This document shows positions 10,459 through 25,574 of a DNA stretch of 64,000 nt, in pieces; positions within the stretch are counted from its first letter, which is position 1; each line of letters starts with the position of its first letter. The translations under genes were made by a program, and so were the position numbers. The notes beneath the pieces are model-generated. The model saw only the letters and a program-made list of their open reading frames with translations. It searched no databases and was not told the DNA's origin. The stretch is from Escherichia phage FP43, in the sequence record MN648445, one strand, 5' to 3'.

Positions 10459-11049
10459 GTGCTTATGACTCGTCCAGCGAGACAGATTTTTAACCAAACA
10501 AATATAACAAACTTTGTTGTGGATATCCCGGATAGTACACGAACTTCAGGTTTTGTGCTCAATGCCCAAACGGCTCCACTGCCAGGTGTGAGAATTCCTG
10601 TTGTTGAAACTGTGACAGGCACAATGGGGCTAGGTCGTGCAATGCGTGCAGGCACCACATTTGAATATGACCCTTTTATTGTACGATTTATAGTTGATGA
10701 AGACATGACGTCCTGGATGAACATGTATAAATGGATGCTCAGCACTAATAACTATATAACCGGACATAATACGGCACATGCCGATGGTCCTGAGTTTGTT
10801 ACTTTGCACATTTTAAACAACAATAAGACCGAAGTAGTTTTGACTGCGAATTTCTATAAACCATGGATTTCCGATCTGAGCGAAATTGAATTTAGTTACA
10901 CCGAAGACTCTGACCCTGCCGTTACGTGCGTAGCAACTATTCACTATGCGTATATGACGATAGAAAAGGATGGTGAAGTCATTGTATCTCAACAACCACG
11001 TCAAGCAGTCGAATCTAAATCCATTTCTAGACACCCTTCCTTGCGTTAA
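10459..11049 (+). CDS. 3: Tail completion and sheath stabiliser gp3 (start uncertain)
   Basis: 196-aa ORF in the 2-3-1 position of T4. Confidence 0.65.
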   Translation: MLMTRPARQIFNQTNITNFVVDIPDSTRTSGFVLNAQTAPLPGVRIPVVETVTGTMGLGRAMRAGTTFEYDPFIVRFIVDEDMTSWMNMYKWMLSTNNYITGHNTAHADGPEFVTLHILNNNKTEVVLTANFYKPWISDLSEIEFSYTEDSDPAVTCVATIHYAYMTIEKDGEVIVSQQPRQAVESKSISRHPSLR

Positions 11050-11102: not shown

Positions 11103-11837
11103 ATGGAGCTAATCTTTTTAAGTGGCATCAAACGTAGTGGTAAAGACACTACTGCTGATTACATCAATTCAAACTTTAAATCCGTAAAATACCAATTAGC
11201 ATATCCAATTAAAGACGCTCTAGCAATAGCCTGGGGACGTAGGCATGCTGAAAATCCTGATGTATTCACAGAGTTGAAATACGAATACTTTGAAGGCATT
11301 GGATACGACCGTGAAACACCATTAAATCTCAATAAGTTGGATGTTATTGAATTATTGGAAGAAGCGCTAATTTATTTGCAAAGTCAATATTTACCGATTA
11401 ATAATGTTAAAGTATTATCATCGTTAGAAGGTGGATATTCATATCTAGATATTAAACCATATGAAGCCCTGCGTGAAGCTATAAATAATATCAACGACAC
11501 ATGGTCAATCCGCCGTCTTATGCAAGCCCTCGGTACGGATGTTGTCGTTAATTTATTTGACCGTATGTATTGGGTTAAGCTTTTTGCATTAAACTATATG
11601 GATTATATTGGAAGTGATTTCGATTACTATGTTGTAACAGATACACGTCAAGTCCATGAAATGGAAACCGCTAGAGCGATGGGTGCTACAGTTATTCATG
11701 TGGTTCGCTCTGGTACGGAATCCACCGATAAACATATTACAGAAGCTGGGTTGCCTATTGAAGAAGGCGATTTAGTTATTACAAACGACGGCTCTTTAGA
11801 AGAGCTTTATTCTAAAATTGAAACAATCTTAAGGTAA
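11103..11837 (+). CDS. 1: Deoxynucleoside monophosphate kinase
   Basis: 244-aa ORF with N-terminal P-loop-like GIKRSGKDT; synteny 3-1-57A. Confidence 0.85.
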   Translation: MELIFLSGIKRSGKDTTADYINSNFKSVKYQLAYPIKDALAIAWGRRHAENPDVFTELKYEYFEGIGYDRETPLNLNKLDVIELLEEALIYLQSQYLPINNVKVLSSLEGGYSYLDIKPYEALREAINNINDTWSIRRLMQALGTDVVVNLFDRMYWVKLFALNYMDYIGSDFDYYVVTDTRQVHEMETARAMGATVIHVVRSGTESTDKHITEAGLPIEEGDLVITNDGSLEELYSKIETILR

Positions 11838-11841
11838 TAAA

Positions 11842-12527
<686 letters not shown>

Positions 12528-12539
12528 TTTCACAAAACA

Positions 12540-12576
12540 GTTTACATAAGGATGATGGTGTGTTACTATCATCCTA
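12540..12576 (+). promoter_or_regulatory. Early-type promoter (GTTTAC -35, TACTAT -10) with flanking inverted repeat
   Basis: GTTTAC 12540..12545, -10 at 12564..12569, arms AGGATGAT/ATCATCCT. Confidence 0.6.
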
Positions 12577-12603
12577 TCAAATAAATGACCTCAAGGAAAT
12601 AAA

Positions 12604-12891
12604 ATGAAAACCTATAAAGAATTTATATCACCTGTTGCTAACGTTTCTACTCTGACTGAAGCAACCCTTACTTCCGAAGTTATTAAAGCAAATAAAGGAC
12701 GTGAGGGTAAACCAATGATTAGTCTGGTTGATGGTGAAGAAGTAAAAGGTACTGTTTACTTAGGGGATGGATGGTCTGCTAAGAAAGATGGCGCTACTGT
12801 TGTTATCTCTCCGGCCGAAGAGACCGCACTGTTTAAAGCTAAGCATATTTCTGTAGCTCAGCTTAAAATTATTGCAAAAACTCTTCTGTAA
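12604..12891 (+). CDS. Internal-protein-like capsid-targeted protein
   Basis: N-terminus MKTYKEFI matches the capsid-targeting leader of T4 internal proteins; ipI position after 57B. Confidence 0.6.
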   Translation: MKTYKEFISPVANVSTLTEATLTSEVIKANKGREGKPMISLVDGEEVKGTVYLGDGWSAKKDGATVVISPAEETALFKAKHISVAQLKIIAKTLL

Positions 12892-12894
12892 GTA

Positions 12895-12933
12895 GTTTAC
12901 ATGCTGATAGGACTATGTTATAGTAGTCCTATC
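12895..12933 (+). promoter_or_regulatory. Early promoter cassette with perfect 10-bp inverted repeat around -10
   Basis: GTTTAC 12895..12900; TATAGT 12919..12924; arms GATAGGACTA (12906..12915) and TAGTCCTATC (12924..12933). Confidence 0.65.
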
Positions 12934-12959
12934 AGATCAACAACCAAACGGAAAAACAA

Positions 12960-13223
12960 ATGAAAACCTATAAAGAATTTATCGCTGAATCTCAATCTTC
13001 TACTCTGTCAGAGAACTACGAATCATTCTCTTACAACAACGACCATGCAATGTTCTACGACCGAAACATCGGTACTTACGTCCATGTATGGGGTGTTAAA
13101 GATGGTAATGTAGTTGTTAAGAAAAACTCTAAAGAAGGCAACGGACGAGGCCAGGTAAAAATTACCAGCAAGAAAGCTATCCAAGCTTACGTCGATTATG
13201 TTAAACGCGAAGCTGGTATTTAA
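12960..13223 (+). CDS. Internal-protein-like capsid-targeted protein (second copy)
   Basis: N-terminus MKTYKEFIAE; tandem with 12604..12891. Confidence 0.6.
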   Translation: MKTYKEFIAESQSSTLSENYESFSYNNDHAMFYDRNIGTYVHVWGVKDGNVVVKKNSKEGNGRGQVKITSKKAIQAYVDYVKREAGI

Positions 13224-13225
13224 TA

Positions 13226-13264
13226 GTTTACATGCCGATAGGACTATGTTATAGTAGTCCTATC
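13226..13264 (+). promoter_or_regulatory. Early promoter cassette, same family as 12895
   Basis: GTTTAC 13226..13231, TATAGT 13250..13255, GATAGGACTA/TAGTCCTATC arms. Confidence 0.65.
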
Positions 13265-13293
13265 AAAACAAAATGATTAAATGGAGAAATAAA

Positions 13294-13479
13294 ATGAAAC
13301 GCGCTGAACTGATTCGTAATGTTGCTGTAGTAATTGCTTCAATGGCTTTTAGTTTTTCGATGTTTGTAGGATTCATTTGTGGACTACTGACAACAACTGA
13401 AAATTCTATCTCATTGGTAGTAGCATTTCTAATCGGTTTAATCGCTATTGTTATGGATAAAATTGCAAAAGGTGAGTAA
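13294..13479 (+). CDS. Small hydrophobic (membrane) protein
   Basis: 61-aa ORF with two hydrophobic stretches; RBS GGAG upstream. Confidence 0.4.
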   Translation: MKRAELIRNVAVVIASMAFSFSMFVGFICGLLTTTENSISLVVAFLIGLIAIVMDKIAKGE

Positions 13480-13480
13480 A

Positions 13481-13843
13481 ATGAAATATCACGTATATGC
13501 GGATTTTGAAGCAAATCCTTCTAAAGACCCGGATTGTCGTTTATTCCGTAATCCGTTTGATTCAGCAGCTCAAGCATGGGCCTGGATTAAAACTTGTACT
13601 CCTTCTTACACTTTCTTTGAAGTGGTAGATGATAACGGTGTTTTGCATCCAGAACCTACAGAAACTATTAATTTCCTTCTGTTTGCTGGTTACGACTGTT
13701 ATCCTCTTGGCGGTATTGATGATCTTGTTGCTACAGGAAAAACTGTTGAAGCTCTTCGCGAAATTTATAAAAACGCGGAAGAAAATTTTGACTGGTATCA
13801 TATTGTTGATGCTCATACCTTTGAAGTGGTGGAACATTCATGA
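13481..13843 (+). CDS. Hypothetical protein
   Basis: 120-aa ORF from ATG 13481 with RBS; no recognised motif. Confidence 0.45.
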   Translation: MKYHVYADFEANPSKDPDCRLFRNPFDSAAQAWAWIKTCTPSYTFFEVVDDNGVLHPEPTETINFLLFAGYDCYPLGGIDDLVATGKTVEALREIYKNAEENFDWYHIVDAHTFEVVEHS

Positions 13844-14130
13844 TTCTTTATGCTAAGGTAAAATCCGTTGAGAATGGATATGAAAGCGATCAACGTGCAG
13901 CTAAAGCACTAGTTGATGACTACGGTATTCTGACCCACTTTGAAGTTGAAAAGGTTTATATTGACCGTTCATCTTCACAGGTTAAATTACTCTGGGAAGA
14001 CCGTAAATTTAATAGCGTGAACTTTGATTTCTTTATTGAAACAGAAAAAGGCCCTCTTGAATATGATATTTTCAAGAATCCTTTGAAATTACGTTGCATT
14101 GAATATAATTACATTAATATGGTACGGTGA
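13840..14130 (+). CDS. Hypothetical protein
   Basis: 96-aa ORF with start overlapping upstream stop. Confidence 0.4.
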   Translation: MILYAKVKSVENGYESDQRAAKALVDDYGILTHFEVEKVYIDRSSSQVKLLWEDRKFNSVNFDFFIETEKGPLEYDIFKNPLKLRCIEYNYINMVR

Positions 14131-14134
14131 GTAA

Positions 14135-14650
14135 ATGAATATTTGTTTAGGCAGTACAATTCCTAAGGGTTACGTAATTGATGTCACTACTTGGGAAAAT
14201 GACGGCGACAACTATAAAACCAAAACATTATTTGGTGTGGAAGAGCATGAGCTCCAACAGTTTAAATATCTCTTGAAGAAATTTAAGAGTCGTCATTCCA
14301 GCACTAAAGCCGAACGTTACTGCGGTAATACGCCATTCGGTCGTTGCTCGCTTTTAATCTATGAATACTTGGTTGAAGGACTGTTCTCAGACCAACTCCA
14401 ACCGGAATTTATTAAAAAGGTCTTTGGCATCGAAGTAGACCTTGGTGATAAATCTGAAGAAGACGAAGCCCGCGTATTCGACCTGTTCTTTGTGAAAGGC
14501 GATGAGATATCTCAAGGACTTATTGATATTCTTGGCTATGCTTCTGAATACTATGATTACGATTTCTTGCGTGTAGTTGAACGTGTCGAATTTGCTTATA
14601 TTGAAGAAGAAATTGTTTTGCCAACTGTTAAAATGATTGATTTGCTTTAA
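14135..14650 (+). CDS. Hypothetical protein
   Basis: 171-aa ORF in same orientation as flanking genes. Confidence 0.45.
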   Translation: MNICLGSTIPKGYVIDVTTWENDGDNYKTKTLFGVEEHELQQFKYLLKKFKSRHSSTKAERYCGNTPFGRCSLLIYEYLVEGLFSDQLQPEFIKKVFGIEVDLGDKSEEDEARVFDLFFVKGDEISQGLIDILGYASEYYDYDFLRVVERVEFAYIEEEIVLPTVKMIDLL

Positions 14651-23998: not shown

Positions 23999-24487
23999 AT
24001 GAATATATTTGAAATGCTTCGTAATGACGAAGGTCTTAGACTGACTTTATACAAAGACACTGAAGGCTTTTGGACGATTGGCATAGGCCATTTAGTAACA
24101 AAGAACCCGTCTTTAGCCGTAGCTAAAGCTGAACTTGACAGAATGATCGGTCGTAAATGCAACGGTACAATTACCCTTGATGAGGCTGAAAAGCTATTTA
24201 ATGAAGACGTTGATAAAGCTGTCCGCGGAATCTTGGGTAATGCTAAACTTAAACCGGTATATGATTCTTTAGATGCAGTTCGTCGGTGTGCATTGGTCAA
24301 TATGGTCTTCCAAATGGGTGTAGCAGGAGTCGCCGGTTTTACTAATTCTCTTCGTATGCTTAAACAGAAACGTTGGGATGAAGCGGCAGTAAATCTAGCT
24401 CAATCTAAATGGTATCGTCAGACACCTAATCGCGCGAAACGCGTAATCTCAACATTTAAAACAGGAACTTGGAAAGCGTATATATGA
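23999..24487 (+). CDS. e: Endolysin (T4-type lysozyme)
   Basis: [32 protein letters not shown]...; near-identical in pattern to T4 lysozyme as recalled. Confidence 0.92.
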
Positions 24488-24765
24488 AAACATATAGTGA
24501 ATTTTTATCAGAATCTATTCTTAACGAAGCTACTGACACATTTGCAACTAAGCTAGGTGCAGCTTTGGTTGAAGCTGAAAGTCTATTAGCACGTATTTCT
24601 GAACTTGCTAGTAAGATAGATACTCGCAAATTTGAACGTACCAGCGATATCGCTAAGCTTGAAGCCTTGTTGCGTATGTGCGATAAACCAGAAGAAATCG
24701 CTAAGAACGGCTCGCTGATGAAACAACGTCTTGAAAAATATATTTCAGGCGCTTCAGAAAAATAG
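24484..24765 (+). CDS. Internal-protein-like capsid-targeted protein
   Basis: N-terminus [10 protein letters not shown]; ATGA overlap with e stop; ipII/ipIII neighbourhood of T4. Confidence 0.6.
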
Positions 24766-25244: not shown

Positions 25245-25574
25245 ATGAAAACATATCAAGAGTTTATCACTGAAGTTACATTATCTGCGGAACAGAAAGC
25301 TGCTATCGAAGAAAGTAAAAATCCCAAAGTAACATATAAAGTAAATAGTAAAGGCGTTTTTGATGGCTTGGTTCAAGACCCTGAATTGAAAAAAGCTCTT
25401 TCTAAAACTAATGCGTACTTTGCTCCTAAATTTAACACAGCAGGTGTACTTATTGGATTGGATGTATTCAACTCTAAAGGTGTTCTATCTAATGCCTTTG
25501 GCTATGCCGCTAACAAAATTACCAAAGCCGCATGGGAATCCAATACCAAACAAGCTCAAAAGCCTAGAGTATAA
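25245..25574 (+). CDS. Internal-protein-like capsid-targeted protein
   Basis: N-terminus MKTYQEFITE, exact match to the recalled T4 leader MKTYQEFIAE with one substitution. Confidence 0.65.
   Translation: MKTYQEFITEVTLSAEQKAAIEESKNPKVTYKVNSKGVFDGLVQDPELKKALSKTNAYFAPKFNTAGVLIGLDVFNSKGVLSNAFGYAANKITKAAWESNTKQAQKPRV

Follow-up and report, generated by a model that had tools for sequence, protein, structure and literature searches.

The ipI hyperplastic locus of a Mosigvirus phage carries IPI and a rare second gene with a capsid-targeting leader

This work concerns a 64,000-nt stretch of Escherichia phage FP43 DNA (MN648445), hereafter called the window, and two adjacent plus-strand genes within it at 12604-13223: ORF1 (12604-12891, 95 aa) and ORF2 (12960-13223, 87 aa). 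The phage belongs to Mosigvirus, a genus of RB69-like, T4-type phages, and its 12000-13600 segment shares 98.2% identity with Escherichia phage 55 and NicPhage. Gene order at the locus is gp3-gp1-57A-57B-ipI-(ORF2)-trna.4; ORF1 lies between 57B and trna.4, with ORF2 intercalated before trna.4. Since T4 carries 57B-ipI-trna.4 at the same place, the 12604-13223 region is, judged by its sequence, the classic hyperplastic ipI locus, here with two internal protein (IP) genes. A previous reading of the DNA (the sequence-only reading) had placed at these positions a tandem pair of ORFs, both opening with MKTYKEFI, and exactly this is seen in the translations.

ORF1 is almost certainly IPI, as its similarity to characterised proteins indicates. 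Residues 20-95 match positions 1-76 of the 76-position Pfam IPI_T4 profile (PF11634; 3.2e-50, 168.4 bits against a cut-off of 25), and ORF1 also matches phrog_4363, "internal virion protein" (9e-48). The same residues align end to end with the solved T4 IPI* (PDB 2JUB_A; 8e-42), 71 of 76 being identical (93.4%), and only one residue distinguishes ORF1 from RB69 IPI. IPI was found in 288 phage records. The predicted propeptide of 19 aa (MKTYKEFISPVANVSTLTE, 12604-12660, plus strand) ends at L17-T18-E19, after which the prohead protease gp21 is predicted to cut. This is the sole L/I/V-x-E motif in ORF1, and it adjoins A20-TLTSEV, A20 corresponding to the first residue of solved mature T4 IPI*. 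By alignment to 2JUB (residues 20-95 to 1-76), mature IPI* of the window phage is predicted to comprise 76 aa (12661-12888, plus strand; 8.0 kDa, pI 9.0). In the T4 precursor, the leader MKTFKEFTSTTTPVSTITE is followed by ATLTSEV and the site is I-T-E19.

T4 IPI (Ip1; PF11634; 2JUB) and ORF1 thus have in common the lengths of precursor (95 aa) and mature protein (76 aa), the cleavage point and the slot after 57B. They differ in the middle of the propeptide (ISPVANVSTLTE in ORF1, TSTTTPVSTITE in T4) and by five substitutions in the mature part. DNA of Mosigvirus-type phages bears an arabinosyl modification instead of a glucosyl one, so that the range of enzymes encountered by the window phage may differ from that met by T4. 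From the T4 and RB69 literature, the 19-residue propeptide would dock the precursor on the prohead scaffolding core, gp21 would cut after L-T-E19 and the 76-residue IPI* would remain in the head, to be injected with the DNA and to block a GmrSD-type type IV restriction enzyme. T4 Ip1, Ip2 and Ip3 are highly specific inhibitors, each of a distinct GmrSD variant (PMC12373910). The sequence-only reading had called both proteins internal-protein-like and candidate injected anti-defence effectors. For ORF1 the first description was correct but too cautious, this being an IPI orthologue (Pfam 3e-50; 93% identity to IPI*). The second does not hold for ORF1 as a new candidate: because the near-identical RB69 IPI reportedly keeps GmrSD-type enzymes from restricting RB69 (PMC6024577), ORF1 is a known anti-restriction factor. 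ORF1, an already characterised IPI, therefore brings nothing new; for ORF2, the proposal has good support from its sequence.

ORF2 begins with MKTYKEFIAE followed by SQSSTLSE. The start of its leader is shared with ORF1 also at the DNA level, as the 30-nt segments 12597-12626 and 12953-12982 show 93% identity. The T4 IPII/IPIII leader, MKTYQEFIAE, is matched at 9 of 10 positions; over the first 10 residues the sole difference from IPIII is K for Q at position 5, and some natural variants carry Q there. For IPIII it has been defined experimentally that the first 10 residues are enough to package foreign proteins, that residues 4 and 7 matter for targeting and that residues 8 and 10 matter for processing; gp21 cleaves after L/I-x-E (all reviewed in PMC9026906). 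The proposal that the shared leader is the T4 capsid-targeting sequence (CTS) with gp21-type cleavage is borne out by these residue matches and by the position of both genes in a canonical internal-protein locus. The putative ORF2 propeptide (MKTYKEFIAESQSSTLSE, 18 aa, 12960-13013, plus strand) contains two gp21-type sites, I8-A-E10 and L16-S-E18. A cut at E18 would leave a mature protein of 69 aa (13014-13220, plus strand; 7.9 kDa, pI 9.4), predicted to fold into five beta-strands and a C-terminal helix.

The loose leader pattern MK[TM][YF]x[EDN]F has four occurrences in the window, each of them opening a small plus-strand ORF, against 0.005 expected by chance from 200 shuffles, and the strict pattern was absent from all 200 shuffles. 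More than 30 variants of CTS-bearing internal proteins are given by Comeau et al. 2007, as cited in PMC2839356. With these proteins, T4 IPII and IPIII included, ORF2 shares the leader MKTY(Q/K)EFIAE, the I-A-E10 cleavage motif, small size, basic character and location in an IP locus. As in the IPII/IPIII family, its body is unrelated to other IPs. It differs from IPII and IPIII in having a body of the phrog_13302 family and a second cleavage motif at residues 16-18, which resembles the long IPI-type propeptide.

ORF2 is rare. Among 50,697 phage records it occurs in 35. In 28 of them, all Mosigvirus, it is full-length, leader-bearing and 95-100% identical; the other seven, from Dhakavirus, have a homologue 63% identical over residues 15-82. 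NicPhage, JK45, ST0 and O157 typing phage 3 are among the Mosigvirus carriers. Among 5.8 billion proteins, it is represented by two 90% clusters alone. Every source labels it "hypothetical", and we call it an unnamed internal-protein variant in the sense that database sources give it no name, the historical ip4-ip14 names not having been matched against it. No Pfam family was matched, and sequence search of PDB returned no relative, the only hit being a chance match to an ankyrin repeat (E 0.3). ORF2 and its relatives are absent from the supplements of two accessory-gene papers by Silas et al., and neither virion proteomics nor a phenotype of ORF2 was found in the literature. Profile search of 1.84 billion representatives yielded six matches, three of which added remote relatives of 47-88 aa; a 3562-aa protein among the six, aligned over 26 residues, was regarded as spurious. 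Using tblastn, relatives were detected in T4-like phages of Klebsiella, Aeromonas, Citrobacter, Pectobacterium and Shewanella.

A frame of only 87 aa, matched by no Pfam family and always annotated as hypothetical, might be a chance open reading frame between promoter repeats and no gene at all. Against this stand the 63% identity retained in another genus, the 25-45% identity retained in phages of the five further host genera and the membership of a single PHROG family. Moreover, the body hardly changes across 14 natural variants, and six sequences alone gave a structural model with predicted local confidence (pLDDT) of 91. The conservation data effectively refute this reading, whose probability we consider negligible.

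The body of ORF2 (residues 19-87) matches phrog_13302, a family without assigned function (2e-36), and so do 8 of 8 relatives. Their common core is H-[AV]-M-[MF]-[FY]...Y-[VI]-H-[VI]-W-G...V-V-K-x-N...KK. AlphaFold2 was applied to mature ORF2 with an alignment of six sequences, leaderless relatives included, and produced a fold of five strands plus C-terminal helix with pLDDT 91.4 and a template-modelling score (pTM) of 0.79. The model of full-length ORF2, based on a three-sequence alignment, reached pLDDT 45.8 and was discarded. With the mature model as query, a structure search of BFVD recovered only its own family, Foldseek against PDB found no significant match, and IPI* did not appear among the structural matches.

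One structural candidate, the anti-CRISPR protein AcrIF13 (PDB 7FI4), was considered and set aside. Its match to ORF2 has 7% identity, covers about half of AcrIF13 and is not reported by Foldseek, and Polo-box and LolA-like folds score similarly against the ORF2 model. AcrIF13 is an acidic DNA mimic with pI 4.17 and a larger, three-layer fold (PMC8857482), in contrast to basic ORF2 with pI 9.4; the acidic surface of a DNA mimic is lacking. We treat the likeness as common topology, not homology, and draw no functional conclusion from it.

Relatives of the ORF2 body in other phages, those of Dhakavirus included, lack the leader and are located in early-gene regions. In IME08 (HM071924; positions 2495-2716 of our locus L002) the homologue, unannotated there, starts with MKTLNINSFFYN and lies between gene 52 and motA. 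Between the same two genes lies the relative in Pectobacterium phage PM2; that of Aeromonas phage 25 is located between gene 39 and rIIA, that of Citrobacter phage Ci1 between an exonuclease gene and the gene for the topoisomerase large subunit, and that of Klebsiella phage pzk-kv8 amid small hypothetical genes. In none of these five was a leader found, even after in-frame upstream extension. In the alignment, the leaderless proteins begin where mature ORF2 would. A clear early promoter of the GTTTAC...TATTATAGAC/TACTATAG type lies within 90 nt upstream of the IME08, pzk-kv8 and Aeromonas phage 25 copies. Leaderless phrog_13302 proteins (such as IME341 gp015, PHG25p005nc of Aeromonas phage 25 and pzk-kv8 gp267) resemble ORF2 in domain, conserved core, small size and early promoter and differ from it by absence of the capsid-targeting leader and by residence in other early regions (gene 52-motA, gene 39-rIIA). 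They are presumably delivered by immediate-early expression and not by injection.

Two of these loci deserve a side remark. The promoter and ribosome-binding-site (RBS) cassette of the IME08 homologue (GTGTTATTATAGACCTATCAAAACAACAGAGTGAAATGGAGATACAAAATGAA) is duplicated about 320 nt upstream, before orf245, which makes another example of a cassette-bounded ORFan. The PM2 member, PM2_284 (L129 2049-2192), is annotated at 47 aa. In-frame sequence upstream of it (NVFHFTRADSVNLSH) aligns with the N-terminus of the family and has no start codon, so this gene looks 5'-truncated or frameshifted.

The sequence-only reading had also assigned to each ORF its own promoter cassette. Indeed, both are preceded by a 48-nt unit in which 17 nt separate TTTACA from a TG-extended -10 element, and the unit is present three times in all. 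Cassette 1 (12538-12585, plus strand) follows 57B; its -35 element TTTACA (12541-12546) and -10 element TACTAT (12564-12569) match consensus at 9 of 12 positions, and its stem-loop (12549-12575) has a predicted energy of -15.4 kcal/mol. Cassette 2 (12893-12940, plus strand) lies before ORF2, with -35 element at 12896-12901, -10 element TATAGT at 12919-12924 (10/12) and a perfect 12-bp stem (12904-12935, -20.8 kcal/mol). Cassette 3 (13224-13271, plus strand; TTTACA-17-TATAGT with TG, 10/12; stem-loop 13237-13264, -16.6 kcal/mol) supplies a putative promoter to the trna.4-like gene and forms the right edge of the ORF2 module. The common form is TTTACA-17 nt-TA(T/C)(A/T)(G/A)T with TG, and two of the three are the top-scoring sites of a promoter scan by consensus match. 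Copies 2 and 3 are 94% identical (45/48), copies 1 and 2 65%; ORF2 is thus bracketed by two near-identical cassettes.

Stem sequences differ between copies, AGGATGATGG/ACTATCATCCT being found in cassette 1 and GATAGGACTA/TAGTCCTATC in cassettes 2 and 3. The cassette of T4 ipI (L004) and one of phage Mizar (L003, about 2780-2815) have still other stems, so that pairing is kept while sequence is not (AGGATGAT.., GATAGGACTA, GATGAGGTA, GATAGGGT). Such covariation suggests selection on the hairpin itself. Because the hairpin overlaps the -10 element, it would exist only in transcripts initiated upstream or in single-stranded DNA. No site resembling an intrinsic terminator was detected in 11800-14200, and no T-run follows the stems.

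"PeSL-like" elements of T4-type phages were described by Arbiol et al. 2010 (PMC2839356) and Comeau et al. 2014 (PMC4122927), and both papers explicitly make the link to the IP loci that Repoila et al. 1994 had investigated. Like these elements, the cassettes of the window are repeats of about 50 nt in which a predicted strong early promoter of sigma-70 type is coupled to a stem-loop; they border ORFans of hyperplastic regions, and recombination breakpoints between related genomes fall at them. In contrast to the RB49 type, the stem-loop overlaps the spacer and the -10 element instead of lying beside the promoter, and there is neither a G4...C4 tract nor a T-run. A regular-expression scan for further PeSL-like promoters used too strict a pattern; its five sites were left unused.

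Comparison of related genomes by blastn indicates how the ORF2 gene is exchanged. Homology between the window and Mizar is unbroken from 12000 to 12989, where leader codon 10 ends, and is found again from 13283 onward. Between these breakpoints Mizar has an unrelated leader-bearing protein of 102 aa, annotated as Ip7 in some records and present in 284. RB69 has an Ip7-type gene before ipI and nothing after it; exactly the unit from cassette 2 to cassette 3 is missing. IME08 shares with the window the ORF2 body and the downstream cassette (13040-13296, 70%). In the window, RB69 and Mizar, cassette 1 always follows 57B, where it is identical, and cassette 2 always precedes the second gene, whatever its body. 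Breakpoints of insertion, deletion and replacement relative to Mizar, RB69 and IME08 thus fall in leader codon 10 and in the cassettes, and because they do so, the ORF2 module is, on this comparative evidence, a unit that runs from cassette to cassette, the leader codons providing a further homology arm. The pattern matches the published PeSL shuffling model (PMC2839356, PMC4122927). By such a mechanism, ORF2 would be a mobile module, and recombination in the cassettes and in the shared first 10 codons would swap bodies between phages. The Ip7/RB69ORF156c-type protein is a close counterpart in this respect: it occupies the same variable slots beside ipI (before it in RB69, after it in Mizar), has the same leader and cassettes, and directly replaces ORF2 in Mizar. 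Its body, however, is unrelated, and it is ten times commoner (284 records against 28).

The sequence-only interpretation of the locus is therefore supported in its essentials, and the arrangement, with variable IP loci, shared capsid-targeting sequence and promoter cassettes, is textbook for T-even genomes. What it had not included is that this arrangement has been known since Repoila et al. 1994, that the cassettes match PeSL shuffling elements and that leaderless relatives of the ORF2 body exist elsewhere.

As the leaderless form spans several genera and the leader-bearing form is confined to one near-identical clade, parsimony favours a single recent event, and ORF2 is most likely a leaderless early ORFan that captured a leader. 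The point of fusion between leader and body is ambiguous within residues 10-16, because STL(S/T)E resembles both the end of the IPI propeptide (15-nt match) and the native TLN... N-terminus of the leaderless proteins.

A leader acquired in this way need not be used. Its relatives function without it, the ORF2 promoter is of early type only and the Shine-Dalgarno sequence is weak, and breakpoints lie exactly at the leader, so its acquisition could have been passive. ORF2 might then be an early cytoplasmic protein that is not usefully packaged, its leader being a neutral scar of recombination through promoter, RBS and first-codon homology at the ipI locus. A neutral scar is expected to decay evenly. 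Instead, M1, K2, T3, Y4, E6, F7, I8, E10, L16 and E18, ten residues of targeting and cleavage, are invariant in the 14 natural variants, whereas seven of the eight other leader positions (5, 9, 12-15 and 17) vary. Variable positions number 7 of 18 in the leader against 3 of 69 in the body (Fisher p = 4e-4), the spacer being the most variable part of ORF2. This pattern looks functional: it is what selection on the targeting and cleavage determinants of a propeptide would be expected to produce, and a neutral scar would not. In addition, ORF2 differs at position 5 alone from the ten residues that suffice to package proteins in the case of IPIII. We regard the neutral scar as improbable.

The promoter argument can be followed further. 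Neither IP gene has a late promoter (TATAAATA) of its own; the nearest one on the same strand, at 11480 (plus strand) inside gene 1, is the only one upstream of 57A, 57B, ipI and ORF2. Late supply of internal proteins may depend on transcripts from 11480 that read through the cassette stem-loops, or else on early-made protein that persists. We rejected the lack of a late promoter as an argument against packaging, because T4 ipI likewise stands behind a cassette of early type and lacks a late consensus, and its product is packaged nevertheless, at about 300 copies per head (PMC9026906). Taken as a whole, features of the leader make it probable that ORF2 is an internal protein which enters the head, undergoes processing to about 7.9 kDa and is injected. 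The locus is best explained, with somewhat greater confidence still, as an ipI hyperplastic locus containing IPI and a rare second internal protein that is a mobile module with a captured leader.

According to the proposed mechanism, the 18-residue leader, with Y4 and F7 for targeting and I-A-E10 and L-S-E18 as gp21 sites, would be joined to a 69-residue beta5-alpha domain. The protein would be packaged, trimmed to about 7.9 kDa and injected, and it would inhibit a host defence at the very onset of infection. Since structure searches gave no link to any known inhibitor, this functional assignment rests on context. ORF2 is a rare, swappable accessory gene with an intact injection tag, located beside Acb1 (anti-CBASS) and IPI (anti-GmrSD); its relatives stand behind promoters of immediate-early type, and T4 Ip1-3 are all specific inhibitors of GmrSD variants (PMC12373910). 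By analogy with Ip1-3, ORF2 might be an anti-defence effector, most plausibly against another variant of modification-dependent nuclease; we hold this tentatively, at slightly less than even probability. More specifically, ORF2 could be an injected inhibitor of an Escherichia coli or Shigella defence, for example of a type IV/GmrSD variant that attacks arabinosylated Mosigvirus DNA, and phrog_13302 could be an anti-defence family with two delivery modes, leaderless by immediate-early expression and capsid-loaded with leader. This extended form is rather unlikely. If it were true, ORF2 would be an early gene caught turning into an injected effector through leader capture by cassette recombination.

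One experimental result weighs against an anti-defence role. NicPhage (OY726582) is sensitive to BrxU, an enzyme of the GmrSD family (PMC13390438), and its mature IPI and ORF2 are identical to those of the window. Neither protein neutralises BrxU in that assay. ORF2 may accordingly be packaged and injected for another purpose, such as DNA condensation or charge neutralisation, head assembly (as IPIII) or host take-over (as Alt). Besides the lack of protection of NicPhage and the absence of a fold-level link to known inhibitors, the basic character of mature ORF2 (pI 9.4) is in keeping with such a role. The IPs of T4 were originally noticed as basic proteins associated with DNA, and mutants of IPIII have assembly defects (PMC9026906). 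On the other hand, wherever a T4 IP has been assigned a function (Ip1-3), that function is specific inhibition of GmrSD. Presence of the leader-bearing form in so few records and its exchange for Ip7 in close relatives fit an accessory gene of an arms race, not a structural need. Further, strong early promoters drive synthesis of the leaderless relatives at a stage when no head is yet being put together. A role outside defence is unlikely, a shade more so than the arabinosyl-specific proposal above, and an anti-defence effector is still the function that we favour for ORF2.

On the plus strand, gp3 (10459-11049), gp1 dNMP kinase (11103-11837) and 57A (11842-12072) are followed by 57B/Acb1 (12072-12527), an anti-CBASS 2H-phosphoesterase (Pfam Acb1 2.7e-58, residues 8-149) that forms the conserved left flank of the ipI locus. 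Its position matches 57B of T4 and of RB69, and in Mizar it is annotated as Acb1-like. An anti-CBASS enzyme, the anti-GmrSD inhibitor IPI and ORF2 are thus found side by side. The right flank, likewise conserved, is a small membrane protein gene (13294-13479, plus strand; phrog_1692 2e-32), trna.4-like and without leader, in the same position as T4 trna.4 and RB69 tRNA.4; trna.3-like and trna.2-like genes and then tRNAs lie downstream of it.

The remaining two leader-bearing ORFs of the window, both on the plus strand, constitute a second IP locus at the ipII/ipIII position of T4, their bodies being unrelated to T4 IPII and IPIII. The third ORF (24484-24765, 93 aa) has L-S-E10 and L-N-E15 motifs and a predicted mature part from ATD. 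It sits between the lysozyme gene e and denV, its ATG overlapping the end of e, and its homologue is RB69p127, "internal head protein", with a more diverged leader (MKTYMNFYQNLSLNE). The fourth (25245-25574, 109 aa; MKTYQEFITE followed by VTLSAEQ...) comes directly after denV and is homologous to RB69ORF123c (MKTYQEFIAA...).

Outside these phages, a degenerate DNA scan of IMG/VR (loci L006-L125) found the leader MKT(F/Y)(Q/K)EF(I/M/L)xE at the head of at least 128 distinct ORFs with very diverse bodies. Among them are ART-like proteins (MKTFQEFIAEAKRLKF..YHGTS...; L043, L059, L064, L077, L085) and an RlpA/DPBB-like protein (L067). Many of the ORFs are on environmental contigs that are not obviously coliphage and whose T4-like nature is unconfirmed, which makes this a side note alone. 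Use of the leader as a tag may extend far beyond the T-even group.

The locus as such is an ordinary case of a long-known hypervariable locus, and what is new is modest: ORF2 is an IP variant of an otherwise leaderless body family, and the breakpoints show how tag and body were joined. With ORF2, the range of injected proteins would gain one uncharacterised member. Because different GmrSD enzymes were recently found to be inhibited with high specificity by T4 Ip1-3, any new body could plausibly serve to probe for a new defence variant. In phage therapy, variable cassettes of this kind are likely determinants of host range. The evolutionary point is that the same small domain occurs with and without a capsid-targeting leader in related phages, with breakpoints visible, and this offers a simple rule for finding more such pairs. 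It illustrates how, in T4-type phages, a protein once made early in the cytoplasm can come to be loaded into the head beforehand and injected.

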